A DNA stretch of 24,073 nucleotides, taken from contig CAVYRH010000009.1 in NCBI GenBank assembly GCA_963770835.1, positions 1-24,073 of the forward strand. Reading direction: 5' to 3'. Below, one piece after another: positions 162 through 24,073 of the stretch (its first letter is position 1; each line of letters begins with the position of its first letter). The notes below the pieces were generated by a model, which saw only the letters and a program-made list of their open reading frames with translations, ran no database searches and had not been told where the DNA came from. This stretch comes from an uncultured Pseudomonadota bacterium. Lineage in GTDB: Bacteria > Oederibacteriota > Muellerivitia > Muellerivitales > Muellerivitaceae. Position numbers and translations under genes: made by a program.

Positions 162-173
162 AGGTCTGCCTCC

Positions 174-405: not shown

Positions 406-414
406 AACCCCTCC

Positions 415-564: not shown

Positions 565-615
565 CCCCCATCACCCCCTTTTTTTTTTTTGAAGGCTTTG
601 CGCCTTTAAAAAACC

Positions 616-1314: not shown

Positions 1315-1449
1315 AGGGGGGTACTTCCCCCTTGTCGGGGTTTGGGGACAACGTCCCCGAGGAAAGGGGTGGGCCTGGACGCCCGTGATTTTCGGGCGGC
1401 TCGGCCCAGGGGGAAGGCCCACGCTCCAAGGCGCTTTTCCTTGGAGCGT
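1315..1449. repeat. Cluster of GC-rich hairpins
   Basis: GGGGAC-AAC-GTCCCC (~1344-1358), GCCCG-N7-CGGGC (1381-1397), and a perfect 11-bp stem ACGCTCCAAGG-N7-CCTTGGAGCGT (1421-1449). Confidence 0.7.
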
Positions 1450-1511
1450 TCCCCCCTTAAACATGACTTTCTTTTATCTTCCTCCGCCCTTTGTGTTAAA
1501 TTCCCTTGGGT

Positions 1512-1829
1512 ATGGAAAACCAAAGGGATATTAAATCCATGTTCAATCCTCTTAAAAACAGGGTCCTGGCGGCCAACCTCTTTTGCGTGTTGACCGTCTG
1601 TATTTCCGGCACTTTCCTTTTCCCCATAACTCTTCCCCACCTCATTGGTTTACAGGCCGTTCTTTTCCCGACCACCAACTATTCGCTATGGGTCTTGTAT
1701 TCAGGTAAAGCCGCCGTCAACGATCCCAACCGTCCCAAAATCATCCGGCTATTCCTGGTATTGGGGCTAGGTGGGATGTTTTTTTGCCTGCTTCTTGAGG
1801 TCCTACTTTTATCCGTCAAAACCGTTTAA
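1512..1829 (+). CDS. Small membrane protein (about 3 TM segments)
   Basis: Hydrophobic stretches VLAANLFCVLTVCISGTFLF, LIGLQAVLF..YSLWVLY and LFLVLGLGGMFFCLLLEVLLL. Start could be 1512 or 1539. Confidence 0.55.
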   Translation: MENQRDIKSMFNPLKNRVLAANLFCVLTVCISGTFLFPITLPHLIGLQAVLFPTTNYSLWVLYSGKAAVNDPNRPKIIRLFLVLGLGGMFFCLLLEVLLLSVKTV

Positions 1830-1853
1830 GAAACACACTCCCCACGGGTGACC

Positions 1854-1894
1854 GGAACCAGGCTTCCTGGGGGTTTTCCAGGAAGCTTGGTTCC
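1854..1894. repeat. 17-bp inverted repeat (possible terminator or protein-binding site)
   Basis: GGAACCAGGCTTCCTGG-GGGTTTT-CCAGGAAGCTTGGTTCC with one G-T wobble, 25 bp after the stop of the membrane-protein ORF. Confidence 0.75.
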
Positions 1895-2164
1895 AGGGAC
1901 TTCCAGGTTTTGTCTTTGCCGTTGGTTCCTCATACCCGCACCCTACACCAGCAACCCCGCCGTTTCCTCCTACCACCCAACCCCTTCACTCACCACCCAA
2001 CACTCACGAATCCACCTAAGGTTTGCTTTACCTAGAACCCCATCGAATACCCCTGCCACCTCCATACCGTCCTACCACTTCGGTTTTCTATGTTTGCTTT
2101 TGCCTTTTTTACTGTCCTTACCAATCTTCAATACGCATCAAGTCCTTGTCCTTGATACTTTTAG

Positions 2165-2259
2165 GTTTTTCCTCGCGGAGAGGGCGAACCCCCCTATCGC
2201 TTCTAGCATCATCACTTGATGCGTAGATAGGGGGGTTCGCCATCGGAGCGAGGAAAAAC
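2165..2259. repeat. 95-nt long imperfect hairpin
   Basis: Nested stems GTTTTTCCTCGC/GCGAGGAAAAAC, GGCGAACCCCCCTATC/GATAGGGGGGTTCGCC and GCATCA/TGATGC. Confidence 0.85.
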
Positions 2260-2576
2260 AGGCCCATTCAAAGGGAAAACTTTATTTTTGGACTTCCATG
2301 GCGCGGAAGTTTTACTTCCATGGAGCATCGCCAAAACCATTGCCATTCCTTGCTGAAATGATTTCACGAGTGTTTCCCGCCCCGTTTTCTCCTTTGAATT
2401 CATAGCGGGCCGTTCTTCTTGGGCATAGCACACCCTGGCTATCAGCAGGTCGCTTAACCGGGTGGTGTAGTGGGGGGACTGGTACTGGAACAGGGTCCGG
2501 CTGGCCCCCTGTGGGGCCGGTGGCCGCCAACCGGATGGTGCCCAGCCCTCAAGCAAGCAAAGCTTAGTGCCAAATT

Positions 2577-2663
2577 CTACTCGGTCCGAAGGCCCTTTGT
2601 ATTTCGGGAATTGACTATCGTTTCGGAATACATCTGGCGGAGGGTGGCCAGTTGGTCCCCTTC
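2577..2663 (-). pseudogene. 3' fragment of small 'QLxTLRQMY' gene (copy A)
   Basis: Translates EGDQLATLRQMYSETIVNSRNTKGLRTE*. Positions 2627-2646 are identical to 19989-20008. Confidence 0.65.
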
Positions 2664-8600: not shown

Positions 8601-11600
8601 GCTGAAGCCAAGGACATCCCCGGCTTCATCGAAAACACCGACCGTTCCGAAGCCATCCGACACATAAACAAAACCATTGGGCCCAATGGCAATGAATTCG
8701 GCGGTCAAGAGCGGCGTGCCCTGCGTCACATCCCACTGTCCTGTCCAAGAACCGTGGCAAGTAAATTCCTGGACCAGGCCCGTATCGGCGTCCGCGACGA
8801 ATACATTTTCCGAGGAATCCAAGGCGATTCCCGAGGGGGAGCTGAAGGTTCCGTTTCCGGCACTGCCGGGCGTCCCCCACTGGGTGACCGAGGCTCCCAG
8901 GGCGGTAAAAACCTGCACCCTCTGGTTGCCTTGGTCGGCGACAAAAACCCGGTTATGGGCGTTGTCAAAAGCGATCCCGACGGGAACCTCGAATTGCCCC
9001 GCGTTATTGCCCGTGCCGCCCCAATGGGTTACGGACCCCCCTTGGTTATTGAAGACATCGACCTGGTTCTGGAATTCATCCGTCACGTAAACATTTCCTG
9101 CCCCATCCAAGGCCACTCCCATAGGCTGGGCCAGGACCTCCGAACCTATCGGCGATTGGGAAACTCCTTGGGAGTTGAAAACATCCACCTGGCCGTTTGT
9201 ATCATCAGCGACGTAGGCACTTCCCTGGTTGTCCAAGGCGGCCCCATAGGGCTGGGAAACCGCCAGGGTATTCAGCAAGGGGCAGGCAACAATGGTTGGC
9301 GTCGGCGTAAAGGTGCCAACCGGCGTCGGAAGGGCGTTGACGGCGGTAGACCAGACATCGTTCTTGTTTAGCCCATCGTTTCCAAACATTGCGAAAATCT
9401 GGTCGTTCAGCACAACCGCAGAGGCAAAAACCCTGGGGCTGAATGTGGCGGAAAGCGGTGCTGATATCCAATCCACCCCATCCGGGCTGTACCAAACATC
9501 GTTCTGGAGGCCCGAGGCGTCCTGGCCCGCAATGACGAACATCAATCCCCGGTAAACCACGGAGGTATGCCCATACCGGGGGGTAAAGGCAGCGGAGGTC
9601 TTGGCCCTCGTCCAATTCGATCCATCGGAGGAAGACCATACATCGTTGTAAAGGTGGGTGCCGTCCCACCCACCAATGACCCACATCTGGTTGTTAAATA
9701 CCACTGAAGTGTGGTTATACCGTGGGCTCCAGGGGGCGGTGGCATGGTTCCAGTGGGCCCCATCCGAGGAAGACCAAACATCATTCGTGGCGTTCCCCGC
9801 TGAATCCTTGCCGCCAATGACCCAAAGTTCCCCGTTGAAGGAAAGGCTCGTATGCCCGGTTCGACCGCCAAAGGTATTGGCTGATTGGGTAACTGGGTTC
9901 CAGGCAGCCCCGTCAGCAGAATTCCAAACGTCTCCTTCAACCCCCGATGCATCCGTGCCTCCGGTCAGCCACAATTGATTGTTCCAAGCCGCCAAACCAT
10001 GGCCGTACCTTCCGCTGAAGGCCGCCGCCTGTGTCGCGGGTGCCCAATTGGTCCCGTCGGTTGAAACCCACGAGTCATTTAGCAGGGATCCCTGTCCACC
10101 CACAACCACCAATTGGCCGTTGAAATTCACGGCCGACGATTGTTGGCGGGGCTCATTGGTCGCGTTATCCGTGTTCTGGTTGAATTTCTTCATGGGAGCA
10201 ATGGTTGGCGTAAAAGTAAAGGTGGGAGTATTGGTGGGAGTAGCTGTTGGGGTGCTGGTCGGGCTGTTCGTCGGCGTATTGGTTTGCGGGGGGGTCGGTG
10301 TGGGCGCGGCGACCAAATTTGCAAGGAGGGTGAAATTAATGAATCCATCCGCCCCTCCACTTCCGTTAACCCTACCTATTACACGGGCCGAAAGAAATGG
10401 AAAAACAGGAACAATTTTCCCTGTATTGTCCACGGAAGAGAATGAGGATAAAGGCCCCTTTAAGGTGACGCTGGGGCAAATTGTGACCGCCTGTTCACAA
10501 CCTGCGACCGCAACTAAAGGAGAACCACCATTCCCAAGCCCAAAATAGAGGAAACTAATGGGAGTCTCCGATTCCGTAATATCCAATAAACCGTTTCTGG
10601 CGGCCATATAAAGCGTGGATTTATTGACATCCGCGTCTACCGATGGTCGAAAGCCAAAAAGACCTTCGACAGTACTTAGCCCACCACCACCCTGAGCAGA
10701 TGCGGGAAGAAAATCCACATCATCCTCGGTTATTGAAATAAGTTCTACCGGGTTGGTATATCCGTTAAAGGTATAGCTTGAATCCAAACCTCCTTCATAA
10801 TTTCCGGTTACCCCCGAACTGTAAACAAAAGGAACAGTGGCGGGATTGCCGTCATTTGAATATCCATCTGAATCATAAGCATGTCCGACGGCCAAAGTGA
10901 TGGTAGTGCTTGGATCTGCCGTCACTAAACTCGCATCGACAGGAAGCTGGTAAGACATTTGGTTGAGCCAGGAACCGCCGGAACCTAGATTAACTATCGA
11001 TCCATCGGACATAGCGAAATACATGTCTGGATTGTTAGTGGTATCCATAGGGGTGTTGAACCCAAGGGTAATCGTCATAGGTTGATTAGCCGACACACCG
11101 TAGTTGGTTGTAACATTCAAGGTTCGAAGGGTGCTTGGTGCCTGGGGCGCTTCCCAATTGGCGCTATACACCGTGCTTTGTTGGGAAATAGTCACGGATT
11201 GGATGTAAGGAACAAGCGGGCCAAGTTGGAAAACATAGTTTTGATCGGGAGCAGTAGTAATTCCTTGCCCCGCAATAGTTTGACCAGTTACATTGTCATT
11301 CCAAGATCCATTTCTTTGGGTAGCGAGATCGGCAGGATTTGGGTTTATAGGATTACCAAAGATATCTTGGAAACCGCTAATTTGCAGTGTTACAGGTCCA
11401 GATTCGGTGACAGGAAGGATTCCCGGCTGGGAAACAACTATGTATTCGATTCCTTCGTTATTAGCTCCATAATTGCTCCACACCCCTTGGGTCGTAACAG
11501 GGCTGGTTGTTCCATCCGCGAAAAGAAAATCAATAGTGGGCATTAAATTCGGATTTGTTTGAGATGTGGCGGTTTGCGCCATTTGACCATTGAACCCAAA

Positions 11601-12971
11601 GATTAAGGAAACTGCCGTATTTGAGGTATTAATCAGCGAATTGGTTACGGGGACAGATAAAGCGCCAAGGTTCGAAGTGCTGGTCGTAGTTACTGGCCAG
11701 GACCCCTGATAGAAAGTCACTCCATTTTGGTCTGTCATCACAACTGATTGAACATAGGGAAGGGACTTATAAAACTTGCTGGCCAAAAGACCCCAAAGTT
11801 CGGTGTTGGGTGAATCGAGGCCCAAAGACCAAATACCCACTCCGGCCAAGGGATAATTATTCGCGTAATCATACTTCATGCCTAAGGATTGAGTGTTGTC
11901 CCACCATGTTTGGTAATCATTAGCTCCGGAATCTTGAAAGTTAAACCATGGCGTGTCGGAGTTGGAATCCCAGGCGGTTACTGGTGCGCTAGTAATGGTG
12001 ATAGGGCCATAAATCGTTGTAACGCCCCCTGAAACGGTTGTAACCGGACGGGTAATCCAAGGCCCAGTTGTATTTGTGGTCCAAGTCACAGCCCTGTTAT
12101 ATGCCCATGAAATTCCAGGTGGGGGTTCAATAGTTGAAGAAGCAATAGTAACGTCGTTTGTTTGCCAACTTATTCCATAATATGGACATATAAGAGACAT
12201 TTGAGCTGGGAAAACACCTTCAGATTGGTAAGCGCTTTCCGTTCCGTCATCCGAATATTGGGCACCTGTACCCCAAATACTAGAACCATATAAAGGCGCT
12301 GTCGGGCCCGCAACGGGCGAGGCACCAAAATGAACACTGTAACCCATAATATCCCAGCCATCGGTCCCATCCGCGATGGTTTCGTAATCCAAAGCCGCCG
12401 CATCACCAAGGTAGCCGTCGGCTGTCACTGTGTAGTTCGGATTTTGTAGTTTAGCCCTGCTGGAAAGATTAACCATGAAGTTGCTAAAGGCGGTTTTATC
12501 AGTGGAAGATATTCTTTCAAAATCAATGTTTACTCCGAGATAGTCCTTAGCATTCATAAAGGTAAGAACGCCGTTAATAAAATTGTTAACATTATCAGTT
12601 GAGTTCACCAAATCACTAATGGCGGTCGTGTTTTCGCTCATAACACAAACTACTGGTCTGATGTTATTCGTCATTGCAACTTGAATTAATCCAGGAGTTG
12701 GTAAGCGATTACTAGGATTTGTGATAGTTGTTCCGTCTGAACTGATTTCAAGATTAAAATCCAATACTTGGCTTAATGGGCTCCAATTATTTTCTATATT
12801 GGTAATTTTGCTACGTTCATAAAATGGAAGAAACCCTGAAACCTTTCGATTCACTCCAACAACTGGTGATGAACTTTGAGCGCGGCCCAAGGCCGGGATC
12901 AATATCCATGAGCATATAAAAACCAAATAAAAGGCCGCAAAACTTTGTTTAGATTGAGTTTGAAAACGCAT
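2664..12971 (-). CDS. Giant 3435-aa secreted multidomain protein: GH18 hydrolase, 2 Ig-like repeats, 2 Kelch and 4 NHL beta-propellers, Thr-rich stalk, CBM3-like domain, T9SS type A/FlgD-like C-terminal domain
   Basis: Signal peptide (..ALGRA/QSS); GH18 motif YLGVNIDFE; Kelch repeats R.GH....F...W..GG....NDVW.S.DG..W; NHL repeats P.GIA.D..GNVYV.D..N..VQVF; C-terminus APN..........SGLYVY.L........GKIVVLR. Confidence 0.93.
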   Translation of the reverse strand: MRFQTQSKQSFAAFYLVFICSWILIPALGRAQSSSPVVGVNRKVSGFLPFYERSKITNIENNWSPLSQVLDFNLEISSDGTTITNPSNRLPTPGLIQVAMTNNIRPVVCVMSENTTAISDLVNSTDNVNNFINGVLTFMNAKDYLGVNIDFERISSTDKTAFSNFMVNLSSRAKLQNPNYTVTADGYLGDAAALDYETIADGTDGWDIMGYSVHFGASPVAGPTAPLYGSSIWGTGAQYSDDGTESAYQSEGVFPAQMSLICPYYGISWQTNDVTIASSTIEPPPGISWAYNRAVTWTTNTTGPWITRPVTTVSGGVTTIYGPITITSAPVTAWDSNSDTPWFNFQDSGANDYQTWWDNTQSLGMKYDYANNYPLAGVGIWSLGLDSPNTELWGLLASKFYKSLPYVQSVVMTDQNGVTFYQGSWPVTTTSTSNLGALSVPVTNSLINTSNTAVSLIFGFNGQMAQTATSQTNPNLMPTIDFLFADGTTSPVTTQGVWSNYGANNEGIEYIVVSQPGILPVTESGPVTLQISGFQDIFGNPINPNPADLATQRNGSWNDNVTGQTIAGQGITTAPDQNYVFQLGPLVPYIQSVTISQQSTVYSANWEAPQAPSTLRTLNVTTNYGVSANQPMTITLGFNTPMDTTNNPDMYFAMSDGSIVNLGSGGSWLNQMSYQLPVDASLVTADPSTTITLAVGHAYDSDGYSNDGNPATVPFVYSSGVTGNYEGGLDSSYTFNGYTNPVELISITEDDVDFLPASAQGGGGLSTVEGLFGFRPSVDADVNKSTLYMAARNGLLDITESETPISFLYFGLGNGGSPLVAVAGCEQAVTICPSVTLKGPLSSFSSVDNTGKIVPVFPFLSARVIGRVNGSGGADGFINFTLLANLVAAPTPTPPQTNTPTNSPTSTPTATPTNTPTFTFTPTIAPMKKFNQNTDNATNEPRQQSSAVNFNGQLVVVGGQGSLLNDSWVSTDGTNWAPATQAAAFSGRYGHGLAAWNNQLWLTGGTDASGVEGDVWNSADGAAWNPVTQSANTFGGRTGHTSLSFNGELWVIGGKDSAGNATNDVWSSSDGAHWNHATAPWSPRYNHTSVVFNNQMWVIGGWDGTHLYNDVWSSSDGSNWTRAKTSAAFTPRYGHTSVVYRGLMFVIAGQDASGLQNDVWYSPDGVDWISAPLSATFSPRVFASAVVLNDQIFAMFGNDGLNKNDVWSTAVNALPTPVGTFTPTPTIVACPLLNTLAVSQPYGAALDNQGSAYVADDTNGQVDVFNSQGVSQSPIGSEVLAQPMGVALDGAGNVYVTDEFQNQVDVFNNQGGSVTHWGGTGNNAGQFEVPVGIAFDNAHNRVFVADQGNQRVQVFTALGASVTQWGTPGSAGNGTFSSPSGIALDSSENVFVADADTGLVQEFTCHGSWTGQWDVTQGTPLLTAEFIAIGPNGFVYVSDGFGTVGVFDEAGDVLGFSQGANNTSFNGTEGIAAGNGNWYLADNGNNQVDEFQTCPLVISPTPTPTVTPTYTPTITPTFTDTFTATPTPTSNYYGTWVEVTANGGFLPRKGHTSVVFKNRMWVIGGVDSKGQYLDDVWSSPDGAQWDQATAQAAFGGRAYHSSLVFNGKMWVIGGSNAASPYTNDVWYSEDGVVWTQATAAAGFNARNRQGSVVFNNLMWVIDGQTLENNTNNDVWSSPDGVTWTEATANAHLNPNSNPDYGQGLVALNGQMWEMESAPFDCNTFCEVLDNVWSSSNGVSWSPQAAAAYPDHVGAGSLVYNGQIWTIGGADGGGGTDDGLAQQDLWNSPDGVNWSLLSPTLSFGPRMYQGSVVFNNLMWMIGGADDDNNLFNDVWHSPGDIIIPPSPTATQTPVPTDSFTPTPTLAVVPCAQTNSWSVLSPEGIATYSNGNICVIDQGNDQVDVYKPDGSPVVSFAGGYFMYNPFGIAVDSNDFTYITDTYNNWVYVYNNNPFPGRVHSWQTSASNNYNSLSGIAVNSALSYVYVGDNFDHSVKVFTTAGASVTEWGSGILNSPTGLAVDGLGNVYVADSATAQIDVFTSQGSPVTQWDVTQGTSLLTADFVSVDNNGLVYVTDGNGSVGFFTSTGTVQDFGQGGTQPFLTTEGIAAGNGVWYLADGENQTVYEFAACSFGPPSPSPTFTATPTPTITFTPTFTPTPTATAVPVYCPESASWGGFAMGIALGSNGNVFAADPALAQVDEFTSSGGSVTQFGGAQLDSPVGIALDSSGNVYVTDEGLNQIAVFNSQGSPVTNWGMIGNSPGQFNGPVGIAVDSVGSQVFVVDQGNQRIQVFTLQGGPVTQWGTEGMGGNETFEVPFGVALDTSRHVYVTDEGTNLVQVFTNQGSPVTQWDATQGTALQTAAFIAVDPNGTVYVSDENGAVGLFSSNGNVLGTSQGGNPNFGESEGLAVGNGGWYVSDTGNDLIEEFSSCSPNPVPTPTPMGTSTATSTPVPTSTPSFTACLPLNSWNFGFQPWGIAADLVPGQGYFYVADDTDGQVRIFNPQGNSVTQLGTQGQFGAPRGVAVDSRGFVYVTDEVNNQVDIFDNNWNFSAQWTLTDPNGGSPNPVGIAVNSGTSQVYVAESGINRIQVFDYHGVLQNEWGVTGAGGNGKFYGLTDVAIDANGNVYATDDLTGLVQVFSPQGGFIKQWDVTNGTNLLTAEFVAVDPIGLVYVSDGFGEVGLFDTYGSLLGAVPIGESSTSGSEGVAVGNGVWYVTDPVNDLVNQYNFCTLPIPTVAVSPTQTSTFSPTSTPTYVSTYTPTQTPTFTVTSSTTNSPTNTPTNTPTETTTDTPTSTPTATPTSTATLTATDTPTNTATTTNTPTDTATNTATNTPTNTATATATNTATDTGTPTPTNTATSTATSTATDTATSTATNTATSTSTYTATDTPTLTTTSTPTPTTTNTATETATNTATPTTTNTATNTATLTATYTATNTPTNTPTNTTTNTATNTLTATPSSTPTGTSTNTPTLTPTLTATSTPTFTATNTATNTATNTASPTTTNTATSTATMTNTQTPTYTFTNTNTATLTATKTATLTPSNTPSPTPTKTPTNILTATPSSTPTGTATKTATITPTYTKTSTPTPVLSTATKTPTRTPTGTFTKTFTPTFTYTKTLTPTITPTPSPTTACGTNNTALALLEEYTSSCGSNSVYHLFAVVNNGAAVTLSDITIKFWPYDTSGVSLVGQITTGGCVWNPTCSHNLTGVSMSAINFSPACGPTTTQMANWEMTVSTTDTTVLSGGTSWVGLQTLVNRSDSQPFVPGTSYWYSPCVLTSTYSTNSHYAIYLKGNLVTASGGVPPSCRPLPTCTPKPGGAMPMLKGSSLEGGYTPTETPTPVPTRGALLQSVVAAPNLSTNGQPIRFLVNLNGPAQVRLSLFALTGEQVYSAQAGGSQGLNTLVWNLQNNARQSTASGLYVYVLRVNDDSSQEMRVGKIVVLR
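3100..3590 (-). other. CBM3-like carbohydrate-binding domain with extra cysteines (approximate bounds)
   Basis: F.VVNNGAAVTLSDITIKFW ... VNRSD ... YAIYLKGNLV resembles the CBM3 pattern N.G...V.LSD..I.YW ... Y..G.LV. Confidence 0.6.
3600..4790 (-). repeat. ~400-aa Thr/Pro/Asn/Ala low-complexity stalk (T-x dipeptide periodicity)
   Basis: TNTPTNTATATAT-type repeats with degenerate codons, producing Val-rich shadow ORFs on the + strand. Confidence 0.95.
11770..12850 (-). other. GH18 domain of the giant protein (approximate bounds)
   Basis: GVNIDFE catalytic motif (~12516-12540), IMGYSVH, PYYG..W and K.DY.....LAGVGIWSLG.D motifs. The NIDFE variant is seen in SleL/YdhD-type GH18 enzymes. Confidence 0.85.
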
Positions 12972-13010: not shown

Positions 13011-13598
13011 TTATTTTGAAACTATATCTTCCGGTCTAATCGTAATAACCGTCATCTTGCTTCGTTCCCCCAGATAAAGAGAGGCAATCCCAAGATTATG
13101 AGGTCTTTGGCTTTTAAGCGTGACGACATATCCAATAAGAATTTTTGGGTCTTTGATCGGTACTGCGCGAGAATGGTATTTTTTTCCATCCTGGGAATCA
13201 TAAATTACGTAACACTCCGCTCCCTTCACCTTGTCCCAAGAAAGATAGGCTTTGTCGTTTTCAATTGTAATTTTCAAATTTGAAGGTGGCAAAGGATGGC
13301 GAGAGCCAGGAGTAAAATCTTTTGAATGTGGCACGGGTGTTTCCTTCATCCCCGTCAGATTATTTTCTTTTATCCATTCCTTATTCTTTTCTTCTTCAGA
13401 AGCATTGAGCCAATCATCATCTGTCCAAGTTGGCTCAGGCGTATTTGCCGCACTTTGTGCGAAGGCCATCTTGTGTTGTAAAACCCCGGTCAAAACAAAA
13501 AAGGTTAGGCAAGTACTCAATATTTTTCGATAAAGTCTCTCCGATAAAATAAATCCGAACTTCTCGTTCTGCTTCAATTCATTTTTGTTTTGTTTCAT
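13011..13598 (-). CDS. Exported protein with C-terminal fibronectin type III-like domain
   Basis: RBS GAGGT before ATG 13598; signal peptide ending AFA/Q; FN3 pattern P.PPSNL.......AYLSWDKV.GAE.YVIY. Confidence 0.8.
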   Translation of the reverse strand: MKQNKNELKQNEKFGFILSERLYRKILSTCLTFFVLTGVLQHKMAFAQSAANTPEPTWTDDDWLNASEEEKNKEWIKENNLTGMKETPVPHSKDFTPGSRHPLPPSNLKITIENDKAYLSWDKVKGAECYVIYDSQDGKKYHSRAVPIKDPKILIGYVVTLKSQRPHNLGIASLYLGERSKMTVITIRPEDIVSK

Positions 13599-13872
13599 CT
13601 CGCACCTCGTGAAATAGGGTGACAATCTTTATGTTGATGAGTTCTCTTAGAGTGTTTGTTGTGTAATTCTGCCATGGTGCAACTCGGCGTGGAGAGGTGT
13701 GCAGGAAAACTTTAATCCCAAATTTCAAACCTGGCTATTAAAATGCTTACCTTGCCCGTTATTTGTCTGTAAAATCAAAAAAATAATATTCGGCTCAATT
13801 AACTGTTGATTTTCTGGCAGAAATACACATCTCCTCCACCCCCTACTCCTAGGCGCTTTCCCTCATTTTTTC
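13590..13872 (-). repeat. Conserved 283-bp leader/promoter repeat, copy 1
   Basis: Diverged direct repeat of 15374-15656 (offset 1784 at both ends). Exact block TAAAATGCTTACCTTGCC at 13739-13756 and 15524-15541; also shares CCATGGTG and ACCTCGTGAAAT. Confidence 0.9.
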
Positions 13873-16366: not shown

Positions 16367-18340
16367 TTGGAGCCGAGTTTGCGTTTTTCTTCTTTGTTCT
16401 TCATTTTTGTTTTTCTTTTTTTCCTCGTCCATGCCGCACCGACTGTTTACTTTGGCGATTGCGGGGATCTTTTATCCGCTTTATATACCGGAGGAATTCC
16501 GCACTCGACAGGCTTTCCCGGCTACCTCCTTTTGGGAACCCTAACTTTATCCATAGCCAAAAGCGCCTTTTGGGTAAATGTAATTTCCGTTTTCGCCGCC
16601 TCCACTTCTTGCCTGTTGCTTTTTCATCTCACCCGAACCCTTTTTTCCCATTTTGAACCACCGGAAACATCTTTTTGGTCCGCTTTAGGCGCTGTCCTTA
16701 TTTTCCTTAGTTCCTCAACCCTGATGTTGCACGGCACTGTAGCCCGCGTTTACACGCCGAACTTGGCCCTCACCCTGGGATTCATGTTGGCTGGAATTAA
16801 AGGACATATTGGACGGCGATGGGCTCTGGGCCTTGGTTTTCTGGTTGGCCTTGCCGCAACGTTTCATTTTCTTTTCATGGCGGGAGTTGTCTTTCTCATC
16901 GTTTGGTATTGGAGAAAACGCCGTGAAATCATTGCAAACGGTGTTTGGATGAGTGTCGGGTTCTTACTTGCCTGGAGTTTATATCTTTGGATTCTCTTGC
17001 GAGCTAACCTTCACCCAACGGTCAATTGGTTGCAATCCGACACGCTCGGGGCATTTGTCGATTATCTCCGCCAAAAAAGTTATCACTCGCTGTTTTTCGC
17101 CCGTTACGGGGCAGGCGCATGGGTCTTTTTCAAAACCCTGGCTCAAATATTCTGGAACCAATGGCCGTTTCCCTGGTGGATTTTGGCGCTCATTGGAGGC
17201 TGGTGGTTTCGTCAAAAACATCCACGGGCTTTTGCCGCCCTTGGGGCCATTGGGTTATTCCACCTCTTGCTTTCCTTCAATTACGGGAATGAGTTCAATA
17301 TGAACACAGCCTACCGTTATTTGCTCCCTTTCTATGCTGCCGCTGCCGTATTTGCCGCTGGAGGTTTGGAGTGGCTTTGGGGGCGTTTTGTACCCACATC
17401 TGTACAGCAAAAAGGGTTAACTAGGACCGGGCTTTGCTTATTATTGGCCTTGGGACTTTGGTTTCCTCATTCGCTTTGGAAAGGGCTTCCCCAATCCACA
17501 GCCAGTTGGGATTACGCGTTGAACCTCTTAAAGCCCATTCCCAAAGGCGCTACTTTTGAGCCTATTGGTGACAACCAGGTGTTCCCGCTGGCTTATGCCG
17601 TCGTGGGAAATGGCCTCCGCCCGGACTTGAATATCGTCGAATGGAGCGGCGACTTTTTTCCCCAGGTCCGCCAGAAACTCGCGGCGCAACCCGGATTTAC
17701 CCATAACCAATTGGAGGAAGAATGGTTCAAAGAGGGCGGAGGCCAGCTTTTCATACCTATTGATCGTTCCATGCCTTCACCCTATGTGGTGGAACCTTTC
17801 GGCCTTGTTTATCGGATTAGCAACGAAACAATCCGCAAATCCTTACCCGACTCTCCTGATCCATTGGCTTTTTGCCGGTTACGGAATTTCGGAGTGGAAA
17901 TGGAAGATCACGAAGCCGGTGAAACCCTGGCCGAGTATTCCCTACAGGAAGCGGCGTACAAATGGGCTATCGGGCAAAAAGAAGAAGCTCTTGTTTCGGC
18001 GGAAAAGGCTTCAGAACTCGGTGGGTTCTCGGTACACACTTTGCTCAGCCTTTCAACGATCTACGGAAAAATGGATGAAATGGATAAATGTGAGATGGTT
18101 TTAAAACGAACTATAGCCCAGGAACCCCATTCCGACTTGGCTTATGGGAACTTGGGTATCCTCTACGGAAAAAAAAGCCAATACGTCCAAGCCATGGAAT
18201 ACCTAACCCAAGCCCTTCGCTTAAATCCTTCCAACACCATGGCCCGTTACTACTACCAGCGCGTCAGGGAACTATTGGCCAAGAACGCCGGCACCCTGGG
18301 CGAAACGGTTCCCTCGGCGAATAAGGTCACAGCTGAATAA
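16367..18340 (+). CDS. DUF2723 / TMEM260-like GT-C membrane glycosyltransferase with C-terminal TPR repeats
   Basis: APTVYFGDCGDL......GIPHSTGFPGYLLLG matches the family motif PTV..GDSGE......G..HPPG.P.Y..LG. Many TM helices, a GDN..FPLAY motif, and TPR AYGNLGILYG....Y.QA..YL.QALRLNP. Start codon uncertain. Confidence 0.85.
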   Translation: MEPSLRFSSLFFIFVFLFFLVHAAPTVYFGDCGDLLSALYTGGIPHSTGFPGYLLLGTLTLSIAKSAFWVNVISVFAASTSCLLLFHLTRTLFSHFEPPETSFWSALGAVLIFLSSSTLMLHGTVARVYTPNLALTLGFMLAGIKGHIGRRWALGLGFLVGLAATFHFLFMAGVVFLIVWYWRKRREIIANGVWMSVGFLLAWSLYLWILLRANLHPTVNWLQSDTLGAFVDYLRQKSYHSLFFARYGAGAWVFFKTLAQIFWNQWPFPWWILALIGGWWFRQKHPRAFAALGAIGLFHLLLSFNYGNEFNMNTAYRYLLPFYAAAAVFAAGGLEWLWGRFVPTSVQQKGLTRTGLCLLLALGLWFPHSLWKGLPQSTASWDYALNLLKPIPKGATFEPIGDNQVFPLAYAVVGNGLRPDLNIVEWSGDFFPQVRQKLAAQPGFTHNQLEEEWFKEGGGQLFIPIDRSMPSPYVVEPFGLVYRISNETIRKSLPDSPDPLAFCRLRNFGVEMEDHEAGETLAEYSLQEAAYKWAIGQKEEALVSAEKASELGGFSVHTLLSLSTIYGKMDEMDKCEMVLKRTIAQEPHSDLAYGNLGILYGKKSQYVQAMEYLTQALRLNPSNTMARYYYQRVRELLAKNAGTLGETVPSANKVTAE

Positions 18341-18389
18341 TGAAAAAGACCGGTGCTTCCAAAAGGCATCAGCCTTTTTTGTTTTCAAC

Positions 18390-18646
18390 CTATTTTAAAA
18401 GATCTATTTTTTGAATTTCGGCTTGTCGGGTAGGCCGTGGAGGTATTGTTTCAGCGGTTAATTTTTTCATTTTAAGTGAGTATTCCAAGCGGAGTGTTTC
18501 CAATTGAGCTTCGGTCAACTTTGCTTGGTCGACGAGTAGATTTGACTGGTTCTTGAAATTGGCGAGTGTCTTCCCCGACACCTTTAGGTTAAAGGGCCGT
18601 TTTCGCGTTGTGGATGGAGGAGCGCCAAAAGGGGAAGGTCTTTCAT
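18390..18646 (-). pseudogene. Frameshifted small 'QLxTLR' gene (copy C)
   Basis: MKDLPLLALLHPQRENGPLT* then, in another frame, KVSGKTLANFKNQSNLLVDQAKLTEAQLETLRLEYSLKM; similar to copy B. Confidence 0.6.
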
Positions 18647-18649
18647 GGG

Positions 18650-19016
18650 TTATCTTTCCGATGAAGCCTTGTCCAGGTAATTCTTCAAAGCTTGAACATC
18701 CTCGTCCTTCATGGCCAGGAACTGAACCCCACCCCCGGATTCATTGGACCAAACCACTTCCGTCATGGCATTTAACTTGGACGGGTTATCGGGTATGAGT
18801 ATTTCTATTTTCAGGATACTTCCTGGTTTTAAGGGTTCGTTGGTAAGGATGCCCAGCCCGCCCAGGCTCACGTCCTGCGTGTGGCCTTCCTTTTTCCGTC
18901 GATCAAAAATTTTATCAATTTCTTGTTGGTCTTCCAGAATCCGGTAGGCAATTGGAATTTTAATAGCGATTCGGGGGTAAACCCGCTTTTCCTTAAATTA
19001 AGAAGCCTTCCGTCAT
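18650..19016 (-). pseudogene. PilZ-domain (c-di-GMP-binding) protein with a 5' frameshift
   Basis: Open frame KEKRVYPRIAIKIPIAY...QDVSLGGLGI...EVVW......GVQF contains both RxxxR and DxSxGG motifs. RBS AGGAG + ATG 19016 is out of frame, with a TAA near 18998-19000. Confidence 0.85.
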
Positions 19017-19114
19017 AGGCAACTCCTGGCTTCCTAAATTATCTGGACTTTTTCAAAGATCGCGCTGCGCCAAAAGCCCCTGCCGTCAAACGTGCGTCCA
19101 AAATGGGCCCTATT

Positions 19115-19441
19115 TCAAATATTATGCGTTCCTTCTACCAGTCTTTTCTCACGATCATCGGTCCGTTTTTGAAGCCATTTGATGGCCTCTTCTATTCCGC
19201 TAATGGCCAAAACATGTTCGGGGCAATTAAATTTTGAATTCTGATAGTATTGTAAACGGCTTAAACAAGCCTCGAGAACTTCCTCCACATAAGCTCCGTT
19301 TTGTACTTTTCTTTCCGCGCCCCTTCCCAATGGGCCGTCCTGCCAGGCGATGGCAATGCCGATACCGCGAACAAATCCGCCTGTCGAGACTCCATTTTCA
19401 TCAAGTTTATTTTGGATCTCTAATTTTTGAAGTTGCGACAT
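19115..19441 (-). CDS. tad1: Tad1-family (Thoeris anti-defense 1) immune-signal sponge protein
   Basis: WQDGPL....NG..VEEVL.....RLQYYQ.SKF.C.E...AI..IEEA..WL.KRT.DR..R.VEGTH matches the recalled Tad1 signature FQ.GP....NG...EDL......RL..FQ...F.CREN..A.TK.EEA..WL..RT..R..RGVEGT. Confidence 0.85.
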   Translation of the reverse strand: MSQLQKLEIQNKLDENGVSTGGFVRGIGIAIAWQDGPLGRGAERKVQNGAYVEEVLEACLSRLQYYQNSKFNCPEHVLAISGIEEAIKWLQKRTDDREKRLVEGTHNI

Positions 19442-19479
19442 ATCTCTCCCCCTTGCTCACGATCCGATCCACCGGCCAC

Positions 19480-19779
19480 TCAGTTGTTTTGGATGTTTTG
19501 GACCTGGGCCTGTTGCTTCTTGGCTTCCTTTTCTAATTCCCTTTGCTTCAGGCGATCTTCCCTCGCTTTATCCGTAGCCAAAGCGGTCATGATATTGCCG
19601 ATGCGGGCCTGGATGTTCAAGATGGCCTTTTCCTTGCCGCCACCGAAGTCAGGGACCCGTATTTCACCGAAATTATTAACATGGGTCTTCGCGAAAACCT
19701 TGCCGTTTTCCTCGTAAATCTCGACTTCAAACTCTTTTTCATGGCTTTTGATTTTGAAATTTTCAATGGTTGGCGACAT
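19480..19779 (-). CDS. Hypothetical protein (small alpha/beta domain + charged coiled-coil tail)
   Basis: RBS AGGTGA before ATG 19779; protein-like composition; ends 38 bp upstream of tad1 in the same orientation. Confidence 0.75.
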   Translation of the reverse strand: MSPTIENFKIKSHEKEFEVEIYEENGKVFAKTHVNNFGEIRVPDFGGGKEKAILNIQARIGNIMTALATDKAREDRLKQRELEKEAKKQQAQVQNIQNN

Positions 19780-19803
19780 GAAATCACCTAATTTCATTGG
19801 ATT

Positions 19804-20158
19804 TTAACAAGAGCCGTATATTACCCGGTATTTCCAAGATGACCTTATCCGGTTACTTCGATCGGTTATTTTGTTCATTATATCCCTCTTCCCAACGTTC
19901 ACCTGCCCGCTTAATTTTTTTGGATCAGTAAGCCTGGGAGTGGAGTTACTTATAAATCTCGGATTCCGGAATTTGGCCATTTTATCGAAATACATCTGGC
20001 GGAGGGTGTCCAACTGGGTCTCGTTTAGCTTGGACTCGCCACCGAGGAAATCCGACTGCTTTTGGAATTTGGCCGGCCGCCCAAGGAGACAAGCCGAGGG
20101 CGACGTTTGCGGGTGCAAATTCTGGTGAATTTGTTCAAGCTCTTCAACAAAGAGAGGC
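19804..20158 (-). pseudogene. Small 'QLxTLRQMY' gene remnant (copy B), no clear start
   Basis: FVEELEQIHQNLHPQ...AKFQKQSDFLGGESKLNETQLDTLRQMYFDKMAKFRN; homologous to 18390-18646 and 2577-2663. Confidence 0.6.
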
Positions 20159-20806
20159 TTAATCCCTGTGAAGAGCCCACTTGGGGTACCAATCCTTCTT
20201 TTGCGGGTTTATGGGGGAAAGCCACATCCATGCAGGCGACCCTGTCCGGGAACAATAAGTAACTATTCGATGAACTGTCCTCTTGTTTAGCCCCAGTTTT
20301 TCCGCAGTATCTTGCCTAGTCAACCCCTTCCGAAAAGCCCACAAAACATAATGGGCCGAAACGACCTTCAATGGGAATCCCATGAGCCAAAGCCAAACCA
20401 AATATTTGTTTTCTCTCGAATTAAATAAAGGGTATTTGACCGCACGCCGATAAAAGACATTGACCTGAAAATGAAATTGGTTTTTTGGCCTTTTCCTTAT
20501 GATTCCCAACCACATTCGCCTGAACCTGTAGGTATGAGTCCCCAAACCGATCTTATCGCTTATACCGATAATGGAATTTCTGTGCATCCTAAGGATCTTT
20601 GCTTGCCTGGAAACAATCCCATTTGCCGAAGCAAACCAGGTAAGAAAATAATGCTTGTTTAAATCCTGGGGCTTTAAGTTTTTTCCCCAAAGGGTTTTTA
20701 AACAATTCAATCCCTGAATTAACCCTTTTTTGGGGGGCATTGCTTTCTGGTGCTCTTGAGGAGCCAAAAAACCTTCCTTAAACGTTACATGCTTTTTTCT
20801 AGCCAT
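20159..20806 (-). CDS. Basic DNA-binding protein with two helix-turn-helix motifs (first Fis-like)
   Basis: ANGIVSRQAKILRMHRNSI and KGLTRQDTAEKLGLNKRTVHRI; Lys/Arg-rich. Confidence 0.75.
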   Translation of the reverse strand: MARKKHVTFKEGFLAPQEHQKAMPPKKGLIQGLNCLKTLWGKNLKPQDLNKHYFLTWFASANGIVSRQAKILRMHRNSIIGISDKIGLGTHTYRFRRMWLGIIRKRPKNQFHFQVNVFYRRAVKYPLFNSRENKYLVWLWLMGFPLKVVSAHYVLWAFRKGLTRQDTAEKLGLNKRTVHRIVTYCSRTGSPAWMWLSPINPQKKDWYPKWALHRD

Positions 20807-20848
20807 TTCCTTCAAAACCTCTTTCGTGAGAAAAGCCCAGGGCCCATT

Positions 20849-21115
20849 TCATGAAGCCCATTGTTTATTCGCTATCCTACCGGCCAAATCTATTTGCTCG
20901 TGGCAAGTCACGAAATCCCCCACATTGGAGTCCTTCCGGTCAAATACCGCCGAGGCCCAAACAAGCTCCGGGAAATTCAAAAAGTCGTTTATTCTCGAAT
21001 CCAACATTTTCATTTACCTTGGGTTGTTCTTAATAAATTCCTTAAGGGTTTTTCCAGTTTCGGGTTAAAACTCAATATGCCTCAAACCCCATTTTCCCAT
21101 TTTATCTCCCGTCAT
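20849..21115 (-). pseudogene. 88-codon gene with two in-frame TAA stops, weakly RelE/ParE-like
   Basis: ATGA overlap with the relaxase stop. Reads MTGDKMGKWGLRHIEF*PETGKTLKEFIKNNPR*MKMLDSRINDFLNFPELVW...; stops at 21065-21067 and 21014-21016. Confidence 0.5.
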
Positions 21116-21909
21116 TTACTTGGGTTGCTTAATTGATGCCATATTTTTTTGAAGGGCAATGAAATCGCCTTTTCATAATCCGAAACAAACCAGCGGGGCC
21201 AATCACGTTCGTTTATCTTAGACTTAAGGATTCCCGTCATCCTTACGGTATTTTCCCTTTTCGCCGAAACAACAAGCCTTAATGCATTGGGGAAAGAGTC
21301 ATTCAGGTACTCGATCATCCTGCCGATTTTCGCGTCCGGGTTCTGGACATGCTCATACTCCAAAGTGAATCCATACCTTTTCCCGTCCAAATCCGTCTCA
21401 AAATAACCGTCTGGCGTTCGCCGGCCTTTGATTTGGGAATTGACCCAATTAGACCGCCATACATCCTTGTCCAACTCTCCCTTTAAAAAGGTTTTCTTTA
21501 CTGCCGGAGTTATTCCGGCCCGCATTTCAAAATCCGACACCCAAAATATCCTTCCGAGTTGGTCATTTCTTTCAAATGCTATCCGAATAGCCTGGACTTC
21601 GAGGTCATGTGCCCTTTCATAAGGATTGATCCTTGCTTGGAACTTCGACCTCTTGACCAGAATCTTGTCCGTCTCGTCCAAATATTGGATTGCCTTCCCC
21701 GTCAGAAAATACATTGAATCCTGGAACGTGGAGGACTCGGCTTTGGTCATTCCGAGGAGGCCTTTTTTAAAATATCGGTCCCGCATGATGGAACAAGCTT
21801 GGCGGTAGGTTTTAGGAAATACAAACCGTTTGTGGAAAAGCTCCGGGGTGGTGAATTTATTTGAGTGAATCCAAGTTAAATGCCTTACTTCCCGCTCGTT
21901 CAATTCCAT
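21112..21909 (-). CDS. Replication-relaxation family (MOBC-like, PD-(D/E)xK fold) relaxase
   Basis: N-terminal winged helix (L..RE...L......KF.T...; YFLT.KA), HDL motif, and PDG-x-E-Y-E (D-x16-E-x-E). Lies directly downstream of a coupling protein. Confidence 0.82.
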   Translation of the reverse strand: MELNEREVRHLTWIHSNKFTTPELFHKRFVFPKTYRQACSIMRDRYFKKGLLGMTKAESSTFQDSMYFLTGKAIQYLDETDKILVKRSKFQARINPYERAHDLEVQAIRIAFERNDQLGRIFWVSDFEMRAGITPAVKKTFLKGELDKDVWRSNWVNSQIKGRRTPDGYFETDLDGKRYGFTLEYEHVQNPDAKIGRMIEYLNDSFPNALRLVVSAKRENTVRMTGILKSKINERDWPRWFVSDYEKAISLPFKKIWHQLSNPSK

Positions 21910-21935
21910 CGTTTTATTCCAAATTTCTTTTAAAT

Positions 21936-23741
21936 CTATGTGGGTAAATCCAACTTGGCTTCCAACTGATCAGAACCTGGGTCCTTTTTCGTTTTTTTCT
22001 TTTCGTTCTTGGGTGCGTCTAGAACTTCAAAATAATTGAAATCCATCTTTTTCAAATGGTTGTTTCGGATGGGGACACAAGCCACGTAATCAAAATCGCT
22101 TGGGGGTGGTTTGACTTCCTTAAGTTTCATCTTGAAAACTTTAGGGCCGGAAACGTAAACGATGCGGCATACCGCTTCCCCGCGCTTCATCCCCCTCAAA
22201 TAATTTGGATGAATGATGAATTCCTCGTCCTGTTTTTCGGTTCTCCCTCGGGGTTGTGAAATACGTGTATCGTAGGAATAAACGTCCTTCTTGGTTACTT
22301 TAGTTCCAAAAATTGAAGCGAAGAAATCCACTGTATCCTTTTCAGTGATATTCAAAACGATCTTGTGGTTTGTGTTGGTGAGAATGTCGTCCTTGAATTC
22401 CTGGCTGACCGCCCCCAACTGACCCAAGCTGTGGTGGGCCAGGAAAAAGCAGACATTGGCCTCACGGCCAAGGGAAATAAGGTCGTTTAAGCCCGGATAA
22501 GCGGCGGTGTAGAACTCATCCAAAAACACGAAAAAGGGTTTTGGGGGCTTCTCGATCAACCGCCGCCCAATGACCCCTGCCAAGTCAATTAAGGCGGAAA
22601 TAATGACCGGTTTGGAGTCCTCCTGGTTCACCAAGGAGGAAGTGCCGAATAGGAAAATCTGCTGTTTTTCCACCACGTCTTTCATTTTGATGTCGGGATT
22701 GAGGGTATTAATAAGGGGCGACCATTCCCGATTTGTGAACCGGGCCAGCTTGCTGGTTAGGCCTGACAGGTTCATTTCCCTGTCCTTGGGGGTCATTTTG
22801 ACCCACTTTTCCAGGAAGTATTTGCCAGATACGCTGTCCTTGTGCTTTTTGCTCAAATGGTCAATCGACCGAAAGGATGTAATTTCGTTGGAGATGAGGT
22901 TTTGGTAGTCCATGCGGGTGACGTGCTTGAATTCAAGGAAAAGCAGGTTGGTCAGGTTGCTCAAAACGTCGCTGGCTTGGTCCCTGAAAAATTCATTGGT
23001 GACGGGGCCATAAAAGATGGACTTCATCAGGCCGTTAAAAACTTCGTCGGGTTTGTCCTTGAAATCGGGGTTATAGGTTTGGCTTCGTTTTATATCGGCC
23101 AAGTCAAAATACTTTAAGTCCTTTAGCCGCCCATATTTGGAAGCGTAATAGGGAATAGTTTTGTTGTAATTGGATTTGGCATCAAAAACAAACATGCCTA
23201 GGCCGTTCCTTATGCCTTGTTCAATGAGGTAGTTAAAGATGTTGGTTTTGCCCATTCCCGAAGATCCGATGACTTCGGTGTGGTATTTGAGCAATTCGGC
23301 GGGGATGAAAAACTTTTTATCCGCGTCAAGGTATAGGGAATAATTCCCGCTTTCCTCCTTAGGCGATTCGCCAAAATCCTCCGACCCTTTTTCCAGGACG
23401 AAATGGACGAAGTAAAAGCAAAACCCGATGAAGATGGAAAGCCCCATGACAACATCGCCGGTAAATCCCTCGGTTCCAAAAGACACCCCCAATAGGTCAT
23501 GGGTAAAGGAAAGCGCTATCAAGGCAGGGGCGAAGGCCAGAAGGTGGTTCATTCGGACATGCTTCTCAAAGAGGTACAGAAAACCCACTGAGAGGACTGA
23601 AACCGTGTCAAAAGGGGTCACGGATGGGCCAATAACCCCTACGGCCTCTAAAGTGAATTTAAGGGCCGAATAGAGGCCAAAACCGGCCAAGATTGGTGGG
23701 GCATGACGCTCAATCTTTTTAAAAAATTTCGAGGTACTCAT
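21936..23741 (-). CDS. Type IV coupling protein (TraD/VirD4/TrwB-like ATPase)
   Basis: N-terminal TM helices; H..VIGSSGMGKT Walker A; VFDAK; YNP; FFVFLDEF Walker B; GREA......HHSLGQL and NT..KI motifs. Confidence 0.92.
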   Translation of the reverse strand: MSTSKFFKKIERHAPPILAGFGLYSALKFTLEAVGVIGPSVTPFDTVSVLSVGFLYLFEKHVRMNHLLAFAPALIALSFTHDLLGVSFGTEGFTGDVVMGLSIFIGFCFYFVHFVLEKGSEDFGESPKEESGNYSLYLDADKKFFIPAELLKYHTEVIGSSGMGKTNIFNYLIEQGIRNGLGMFVFDAKSNYNKTIPYYASKYGRLKDLKYFDLADIKRSQTYNPDFKDKPDEVFNGLMKSIFYGPVTNEFFRDQASDVLSNLTNLLFLEFKHVTRMDYQNLISNEITSFRSIDHLSKKHKDSVSGKYFLEKWVKMTPKDREMNLSGLTSKLARFTNREWSPLINTLNPDIKMKDVVEKQQIFLFGTSSLVNQEDSKPVIISALIDLAGVIGRRLIEKPPKPFFVFLDEFYTAAYPGLNDLISLGREANVCFFLAHHSLGQLGAVSQEFKDDILTNTNHKIVLNITEKDTVDFFASIFGTKVTKKDVYSYDTRISQPRGRTEKQDEEFIIHPNYLRGMKRGEAVCRIVYVSGPKVFKMKLKEVKPPPSDFDYVACVPIRNNHLKKMDFNYFEVLDAPKNEKKKTKKDPGSDQLEAKLDLPT

Positions 23742-23848
23742 GGAGGCGAATCTTCTTCAAAAGTTTTAGGGAACCAATAGCCTTTAACTTTTATAACCCC
23801 CGGCCAAAATAGACAAGTTCCTATTTGCGTGATTTTGAAGAAAAACCC

Positions 23849-23976
23849 CGTGTCATATACGTGTCAATCGAAATGCTTTTTTACGAGTTTTTAGGATGCT
23901 TGATGCTCACTGACGCTCGGTCAAAAAAAAAGCCCTTGTCCGCAAGGCTAGTAATTTCCTTGCAAACAAAGGCTTT
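23849..23976. other. att-arm-like region next to the tRNA
   Basis: Direct repeat CGTGTCA at 23849-23855 and 23860-23866 (11-bp period), and an imperfect inverted repeat AAAGCCCTTGT..GCAAGG/CCTTGC..ACAAAGGCTTT at 23929-23976. Confidence 0.55.
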
Positions 23977-24008
23977 CAAAGCGTGCCTGGAACATGTCCC
24001 TTACAAGA

Positions 24009-24073
24009 TGGAGCTGGCGACCGGAATCGAACCGGTGACCTGCCGCTTACAAGGCGGCTGCTCTACCAGCTGA
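24009..24073 (-). tRNA. tRNA-Thr(UGU), 5' end outside the window
   Basis: Reverse complement TCAGCTGGTAGAGCA-GCCGC-CTTGTAA-GCGGC-AGGTC-ACCGG-TTCGATT-CCGGT-CGCCAGC-T-CCA shows the D loop, TGT anticodon, T loop and encoded CCA. Confidence 0.97.

Follow-up and report, generated by a model that had tools for sequence, protein, structure and literature searches.

The Tad1-like gene and its product

The stretch of DNA analyzed here (the window) is the whole of contig C9, 24,073 bases long, from the genome of an uncultured soil bacterium (4.58 Mb, 26 contigs, 96% complete). On its minus strand, at 19115–19441, the window carries an intact open reading frame (ORF) of 108 codons with an ATG start, and a purine-rich run resembling a Shine-Dalgarno sequence was read directly 5' of the ATG (19444–19453, minus strand). 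The product resembles Tad1, and 2.5 kb upstream, the same strand carries a gene for a type IV coupling protein. An earlier note on this DNA had assigned a Tad1 signature to the ORF, and the coordinates, the length of 108 amino acids (aa), the C-terminal pattern, and the CPEH motif were all found as claimed. The C-terminal KRTDDREKRLVEGT agrees with the pattern RT..R..R.VEGT, and FNCPEH is located at the place of C/S-R-E-N in the solved Tad1 proteins.

The product was compared with known proteins by sequence and by structure. In a phmmer search of all Protein Data Bank (PDB) chains, CmTad1 (8kbb) was matched at E 5.7e-12 and CbTad1 (7uav, 8kbe, and others) at approximately 3e-8, the first unrelated chain appeared only at E 0.015, and no Acb2 chain was found at E ≤ 10. 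In the PHROGs search, phrog_2428 was matched at E 5.7e-20. The AlphaFold2 model, for which an alignment of 29 sequences was used as input, had a mean predicted local distance difference test (pLDDT) score of 85.6 and comprised a predicted N-terminal beta-sheet (residues 8–33; strands 8–13, 19–26, and 29–33) and two C-terminal helices (52–67 and 74–99). All 20 Foldseek matches to the PDB at E ≤ 0.001 were Tad1 chains, and the following match had an E of 0.5. With VIA-align, the model was superposed on Tad1 at Z 8.6–9.3 and a root-mean-square deviation of 2.4–3.1 Å over 94–102 residues, spanning residues 1–101 to 1–107 of the model depending on the chain. The non-Tad1 rows, T4 Vs.4/Acb2 included, reached Z ≤ 6.7 and were generic helical hairpins covering residues 51–108 only. 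The top viral model was an Acb2/Tad1-hairpin protein of Vibrio phage VP-1 (TMq 0.85, 39% identity). In the case of Pfam, the local copy of PF24729 (model version 2) matched neither the window protein nor its paralogue on contig C14 of the same genome, and a precomputed PF24729.3 (Acb2_Tad1_hairpin) label was found on 25 of the 39 closest relatives. By sequence and fold, the ORF encodes a true Tad1-family protein, with a match far above chance.

The same fold and a significant sequence match are shared with SBSphiJ7 Tad1, CbTad1 (7UAV, 7UAW, 8SMD, 8KBE, and 8KBF), and CmTad1 (8KBB–8KBD). The likeness extends over the N-terminal antiparallel sheet, the two long C-terminal helices, and the RT..R...EGT lid region. 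The hidden Markov model and structure searches against Tad1 and Acb2 that the earlier note had proposed thus gave a full-length match to Tad1, while the match to Acb2 was confined to the hairpin: Acb2 and T4 Vs.4 have the C-terminal helical hairpin in common with the window protein (Z 6.4 to 7UQ2, residues 51–108) and PF24729 spans both families, but Acb2 is without the N-terminal sheet that the model shares with Tad1. The product was also said to have a shorter N-terminus. This held against the solved chains (108 aa vs 123–138 aa, or up to 142 aa among the Tad1 proteins compared) but not against environmental phage copies. Among 80 viral copies kept from IMG/VR, 67 were 103–111 aa long; the short N-terminus is therefore the normal form of environmental phages.

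The clade, its loci, and its ligand sites

Relatives were collected from sequence databases and viral contigs. A word-indexed search returned 62 relatives of the window protein, and the best 40 of these showed 63–100% identity, with CPE[N/H/Y] in all and a length of 108 aa in 36 (112–127 aa in the other four). In an exhaustive search of 1.84 billion representatives, 1,833 clusters were found at E ≤ 0.001, 468 at ≤ 1e-10, and one at ≤ 1e-30, so the clade is one tight cluster inside a large family. IMG/VR yielded 299 confirmed relatives, with a top identity of 62%. The 80 viral copies kept had CREN in 55 and CPEN in two. Thus, the short phage Tad1-like proteins (approximately 106 aa; IMG/VR, phrog_2428) are of the same length class as the window protein, but they are at most 62% identical to it, mostly carry CREN, and lie beside phage genes, whereas the clade described next has CPE[N/H/Y] in 45 of 45 members and no viral member.

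After removal of 13 duplicates, 137 rows (70 viral, 62 database, and five genome rows) were placed in a tree, for which only the last 110 residues of long viral ORFs were used. In it, the CPE rows formed one group of 45 members on a stem of 0.65 changes per column. The group was supported by an SH-aLRT (Shimodaira–Hasegawa-like approximate likelihood-ratio test) value of 99 in a quick tree, and by an ultrafast bootstrap of 100 and an SH-aLRT of 100 in a careful tree whose bootstrap was not fully settled. The clade was labelled by the motif, and the motif columns were left in the alignment. None of the 70 viral rows fell inside it, and both viral CPEN rows were placed elsewhere. The clade is nested among short phage Tad1-like proteins; because the root was set by midpoint only, its derivation from phage forms is something that we infer. 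As judged from these sequences, the window protein belongs to a clade of 45 members that is found only in bacterial DNA and in one family of candidate division FCPU426. The earlier note had taken the gene for a phage-type copy that had moved onto an island; instead, it falls in a bacteria-only clade whose members mostly occur alone in ordinary chromosomal neighborhoods.

Among 99 FCPU426 genomes, a match was found in eight, all from the family of the window genome (8/31, the window genome included); the gene is carried by one of the three other genomes of the same genus and by none of the 68 genomes from outside the family. Two copies each were found in the window genome (G000), G060, and G062. 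The second copy of the window genome is at C14:41545–41868. In the case of G062 (contig C20), a clade-type CPEN copy is accompanied by a 53%-identical canonical CREN copy that is outside the clade and has a 7-residue insert. When compared with viral loci by tblastx, 2.5 kb of the CREN-copy locus was matched, but chromosomal controls also gave 1–1.5 kb of scattered matches.

Selection was assessed with nine clade genes: those of the window and C14, and seven from other genomes. Each has exactly 108 codons. The pairwise ratio of nonsynonymous to synonymous divergence (dN/dS) could be computed for 32 of the 36 pairs, with a median of 0.14 and a highest value of 0.24; the other four pairs were saturated, and dS was mostly above 1. 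These alignments indicate that the clade is under purifying selection and that the gene is functional.

The eight loci other than the window (seven from records of metagenome-assembled genomes, and that of the C14 paralogue) were examined through 78 neighbor ORFs annotated within approximately 6 kb. The neighbors have roles in metabolism, transport, the envelope, and regulation (for example, RpoD, ABC transporters, glycoside hydrolases, and beta-lactamase-like proteins); no integrase, transposase, conjugation, or phage family was found among the 78 ORFs at E ≤ 1e-4, and no relative of the coupling or relaxase-like protein of the window was found at any of the eight loci. Moreover, none of the 40 neighbor ORFs without a Pfam match had a PHROG match at 1e-5, while the same scan of five viral loci matched 33 of 68 ORFs, among them genes for terminase, portal, major head, baseplate, and tail-fibre proteins. 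Neither tRNA genes nor relatives of the integrases of the window genome were found in 17 clade loci. With eight of the nine loci among metabolic or housekeeping genes, carriage on an island is not the usual habitat of the clade. No neighbor is conserved across the clade loci, and neither an upstream motif nor a TATGA-N6-TCATA box is common to the nine loci. A search for an empty orthologous site of the C14 copy in the same-genus genomes found none, only a STAS gene being matched. The idea of a cassette was rejected: no repeats bracket the gene, and the similarity between the window and C14 copies is confined to the coding region (window 19113–19433). Two genomes of the genus (G000 C14 and G065 C16) have a STAS-domain gene beside the Tad1-like gene, but on opposite sides, convergent in one genome and divergent in the other, and a GGDEF-EAL gene lies approximately 4 kb from the Tad1-like gene at locus L086.

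The ligand sites were located by carrying over the residues named in the available text of PMC10680739 through the phmmer PDB alignments. According to that source, F82, N92, R109, and R113 form the pocket of CbTad1 for glyco-cyclic ADP-ribose (gcADPR) and cyclic dinucleotides; R90 and T97 (R88 and T95 in CmTad1) contact the phosphates of cyclic trinucleotides, lie at the trimer-of-dimers interface, and serve hexamer formation; and C87, A91, and M92 of CmTad1 make base contacts. In the window protein, the pocket equivalents are Y66, H76, R93, and R97, those of F82, R109, and R113 being kept; the trinucleotide positions are P74 and S81, and the base-contact positions are C73, V77, and L78. Pro74, Val77, and Ser81 take the places of an Arg, an Ala, and a Thr of the trinucleotide and hexamer site, and His76 that of Asn92. 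The hexamer-interface equivalents P74, G82, and K88 differ from R88, K96, and M102 of CmTad1, while W89 and K92 are kept. The reading of CREN as CPEH in the earlier note was borne out, and the change is at functional sites; thus, the Arg for cyclic trinucleotides and the hexamer has been lost, and the pocket Asn for gcADPR and cyclic dinucleotides has been changed.

These positions were counted in the 45 clade members and the 70 viral rows. At pocket position 66, the clade has Y in 35, H in five, F in four, and N in one, and the viral rows have Y in 68. Position 76 is N in 42 clade members, Y in two, and H in the window copy alone, vs N in all 70 viral rows. The two pocket arginines are nearly invariant, with R at position 93 in 44 of 45 clade members and at position 97 in 45 of 45, as in every viral row. 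At the trinucleotide site and interface, position 74 is P in all 45 (viral R 58/70), position 77 is V in all 45 (viral A 56/70), and position 81 is S in 39 (viral T 59/70). The equivalent of CmTad1 K96 at the interface is G, A, E, or D in the clade, vs K in 51 of the viral rows. By these counts, the clade keeps the pocket positions, and its trinucleotide site and hexamer interface are remodelled. As 6% of Tad1 homologues are substituted at the trinucleotide site (PMC10680739), the variation of the clade there is known in kind.

The island around the window copy

The contig ends in the 3' part of a tRNA-Thr(TGT) gene (23998–24073, minus strand), which is likely the attachment-site side of an island. 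From this tRNA, the order on the same strand is coupling protein, relaxase-like protein, helix-turn-helix protein, two ORFs, the Tad1-like gene, a PilZ-domain ORF, and a 63-aa ORF. The coupling protein (601 aa; 21936–23741) has a hydrophobic N-terminus and the Walker A motif GSSGMGKT, and it matched the Pfam families TraG-D_C at 48.5 bits (cut-off 22) and TrwB_AAD_bind at 41.9 bits (cut-off 20.5). It also matched mad8, a component of the MADS defence system in PADLOC (E 1.2e-16), probably through a shared HerA/FtsK-type ATPase core, and therefore has its ATPase class in common with a defence component. This match (mad8, HerA) was the only one that PADLOC gave among 28 ORFs of the island and its flanks. 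The next gene (21112–21909) encodes a candidate relaxase-like protein of 265 aa (MobC/replication-relaxation type, by a weak match). In 17–24% of the members of its ESM-Atlas neighbors, PF13814 was present; the PF13814 model had no match anywhere in the genome, and the control of the same search also gave none.

The helix-turn-helix protein (HTH_23, 218 aa; 20159–20815) is identical over residues 1–164 to a copy on contig C5, that is, up to the C5 end. It is followed by a 104-aa ORF of no assigned function (19804–20118), a 105-aa ORF for which no family was found and the ESM Atlas gave nothing usable (score 0.75; 19480–19797), and the Tad1-like gene, with gaps of 40, 6, and 38 nucleotides. The 105-aa ORF has a 71%-identical partial copy on contig C7. 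On the 3' side of the Tad1-like gene are the PilZ-domain ORF (73 aa; 18650–18871) and the 63-aa ORF (18390–18581), which has copies on contigs C3 and C6 and is a paralogue of the 104-aa product; the latter is also related to two C6 copies. Small genes of island type are therefore found on both sides of the Tad1-like gene. Members of this small-protein family with the common motif also occur in G000 at C6:2716–3784 and C3:57161–57304, on low-GC island-like contigs; a DnaJ-domain gene and split ORFs of a Y-family polymerase (IMS) are also present on contig C6.

The composition of the window copy is that of the island: its G+C content (GC) is 0.44 (0.39 at third codon positions, GC3), that of the island is 0.45, and that of the genome is 0.545. 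The C14 paralogue has a GC of 0.53 (GC3 0.61) and resembles its chromosomal flanks. Farther left in the window, a minus-strand ORF of 3,435 aa (2664–12971) encodes Kelch and NHL beta-propeller repeats after a GH18 chitinase-like domain, with a GC of approximately 0.57 that drops to 0.42 toward its 5' end. It lies between the island genes and a truncated ArdC_N fragment (6–152, minus strand; profile positions 2–50 of 123), and it is a surface-type gene, not a transfer gene. The earlier note had placed the Tad1-like gene beside a coupling protein, a relaxase, and ardC. The coupling protein stood, but the relaxase is only a weak match, and ardC is a truncated fragment 19 kb away.

Both ends of the window overlap with other contigs of the genome. 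Window 20323–24073 corresponds to the C5 end at 95.6% identity, where the coupling module follows tRNA-Thr(CGT), and window 1–5271 corresponds to the C10 start at 98.1% identity. The joined picture of the island (C5, C9, and C10) was thus inferred from overlaps of 96–98% and not assembled. In this picture, the inferred flank on C5 beyond the tRNA consists of housekeeping genes for a penicillin-binding protein, tyrosyl-tRNA synthetase, YebC, RuvC, and RuvA, and C10:18428–18481 holds a 54-nucleotide copy of the 3' part of tRNA-Thr(CGT), which resembles an attR repeat. Three tandem tyrosine recombinase genes, similar to a recombinase-in-trio arrangement, are at C10:6765–10013, an inferred distance of approximately 1.5 kb past the left end of the window. 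Related coupling modules are present at C5:408289–412050 (coupling protein 97.7% identical) and C1:8454–9891 (81%), both following tRNA-Thr(CGT); the occurrence of the modules at different tRNA-Thr genes suggests recent movement or strain variants. C1 and C12 carry further pairs of coupling and relaxase-like genes, and C19 a relaxase-like gene alone. Pfam and NCBIfam scans of the window ORFs, several of which have no family, found no mating-pair-formation (type IV secretion) gene.

Terminase, portal, capsid, and tail genes of phages were looked for in the window and in 50 ORFs from the inferred flanks and sister contigs, and none was found. The statement of the earlier note that the window holds no phage gene was therefore upheld, also when the flanks on C5 and C10 were included. 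A 204-aa ORF (13011–13625, minus strand) gave a local match, over residues 108–153, to a PHROG annotated as major tail protein (E 2.3e-5), with no other phage-like gene nearby. Metagenomic contigs matching the window 18300–21000 region were of low depth and from soil, and no RNA-derived match to the region was listed. On one soil contig (X2), which came from a different sample of the same study, the Tad1-like gene is joined to the two upstream ORFs. A further soil contig, from another study (X4), matches window 19363–19615, which takes in the 5' portion of the Tad1-like gene and some of the upstream ORF, and then continues for approximately 850 bases unlike the window; the gene therefore has another upstream context in that population.

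Possible role of the Tad1-like clade

In the explanation proposed here, to which we would give an even chance, the gene encodes a predicted sponge for TIR signals or cyclic dinucleotides with a narrowed ligand range, carried in this genome as cargo of a non-phage island. The Tad1-fold protein is predicted to bind and sequester gcADPR-like (TIR-type) or cyclic-dinucleotide immune signals. The Tad1 dimer and its pocket would still be formed, and the binding of cyclic trinucleotides would have been lost, possibly together with the hexamer. The window copy would likely be cargo of the island at tRNA-Thr that carries the coupling-protein gene, and the benefit may be a blunting of nucleotide-signal immunity (Thoeris-like TIR systems, and perhaps CBASS, the cyclic-oligonucleotide-based antiphage signalling system) in cells that the island enters or inhabits. 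On the evidence of the aligned sites, the sponge likely still captures one class of alarm molecule, for a mobile element or a host and not for a phage. Possible targets were sought in the family, in which TIR_2 was found in 9 of 31 genomes, ThsB_TIR in five, and SMODS in two; thus, such systems exist among possible recipients.

Several observations weigh against this explanation. First, TIR_2, ThsB_TIR, and SMODS, the last representing cGAS/DncV-like nucleotidyltransferases (CD-NTases), had no match in the 96%-complete window genome. Because no TIR or CD-NTase gene was detectable there, the suggestion of the earlier note that the element buffers the host's own system is unsupported. TIR_2 also does not track the Tad1-like gene, being found in two of eight genomes with it and in 7 of 23 without it. 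Second, there is no integrase inside the window, the relaxase-like protein matched NCBIfam MobC_subf at only E 4.8e-4 and 19.5 bits against a cut-off of 200, and the window is the only one of the nine examined clade loci that is near conjugation-type genes. Third, His76 occupies the place of CbTad1 N92 in the window copy, one of 45 in the clade, so that the ligand binding of this copy is less certain than that of the clade. Moreover, according to the available text of the AntiDefenseFinder preprint (PMC11370490), phages are the only targets so far demonstrated for CBASS and Thoeris, and no precedent for a benefit of such a sponge to a conjugative-type element was found in the literature.

The main rival, which is less likely but possible, is a host-domesticated nucleotide binder. 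The clade would then be a cellular family derived from a phage sponge and directed at an endogenous messenger or a pathway threshold, and the island copy would be a mere paralogue. Such a family would fit the exclusion of all viral rows from the clade and its long stem, the ordinary chromosomal neighborhoods of eight of the nine loci, purifying selection with synonymous sites near saturation, and the host-like GC of the C14 copy. The presence of two copies in three genomes (one of those in G062 being of the CREN type) and the signalling genes nearby (PilZ at the window, STAS in two genomes, and GGDEF-EAL in L086) would also be in line with it, and a precedent is Apyc1, an anti-defence family that is mainly chromosomal (PMC11370490, in the available text). 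However, the gene is patchily present in its own family and genus and absent from the genomes examined in the rest of the phylum, no neighbor or upstream motif is common to its loci, the window copy has a foreign, island-like composition, and no candidate host enzyme making the ligand was identified.

A further reading is unlikely, but worth stating. In such a case, a phage sponge would have been captured, its trinucleotide site removed, and the gene long kept as a cellular and an island gene in one family, domesticated so as to tune or disarm TIR- or cGAS-type signalling. Incoming non-phage DNA, for example, may be shielded in this way from abortive-infection alarms.

It is quite improbable that the protein has kept the Tad1 fold without ligand binding and acts otherwise, for example, in protein binding or as a structural component. 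The change of the pocket Asn to His in the window copy, the remodelling of the trinucleotide and hexamer interface throughout the clade, and an N-terminal sheet shorter than that of solved Tad1 would agree with such a loss. Nevertheless, 44 and 45 of the 45 members, respectively, retain the two pocket arginines, and 39 retain the aromatic residue, which would be unexpected without a nucleotide ligand; the short form is also the common phage form.

A decayed prophage remnant, or phage DNA misbinned into the genome, is very improbable: the nearest relatives outside the clade are on viral contigs, phage genes fill the sampled viral loci, and there is the one local match to a tail protein over 46 residues, but the gene is intact and under purifying selection, phage hallmark genes are absent from the window and the flank and sister-contig ORFs, the unannotated neighbors at the other clade loci match no PHROG, and both contig ends match other contigs of the window genome.

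The proposed sponge on a non-phage island also differs from the known systems in its setting, as the clade is found in bacterial chromosomes and on one island, not in phages or prophages. All 799 Tad1 homologues of the founding preprint were in phages or prophages (10.1101/2022.05.03.490397, in the available text), and Tad genes are described as mainly on phages and prophages in a later survey (PMC11370490); a 2025 preprint counts 2,953 Tad1 homologues (PMC12393519). No paper on Tad1 on a conjugation-type element or on a chromosomal Tad1 clade was found in a search that covered articles and not their supplementary tables. Apyc1, which acts against Pycsar, likewise forms an anti-defence family of which many members are chromosomal and not mobile (PMC11370490); its bacterial form was inferred to be ancestral, whereas the present clade looks phage-derived under a midpoint root. 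Anti-defence genes in the leading region of conjugative plasmids (PMC11541004) are a further parallel, since there, too, a gene of counter-defence type is near transfer genes. Those genes are anti-CRISPR, anti-restriction, and anti-SOS genes, and a nucleotide-signal sponge was not found reported in the available text of that paper.

If true, a selected, bacteria-only Tad1 clade would mean that signal sponges are not confined to viruses, and one copy of the clade is carried on an island that has conjugation-type genes. As a natural separation-of-function variant, which retains the pocket but lacks the trinucleotide site, the clade would also lend itself to the study of ligand choice and oligomer state. 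It raises the testable question of whether non-phage elements, or the host itself, are subject to nucleotide-signalling defences or manage them.

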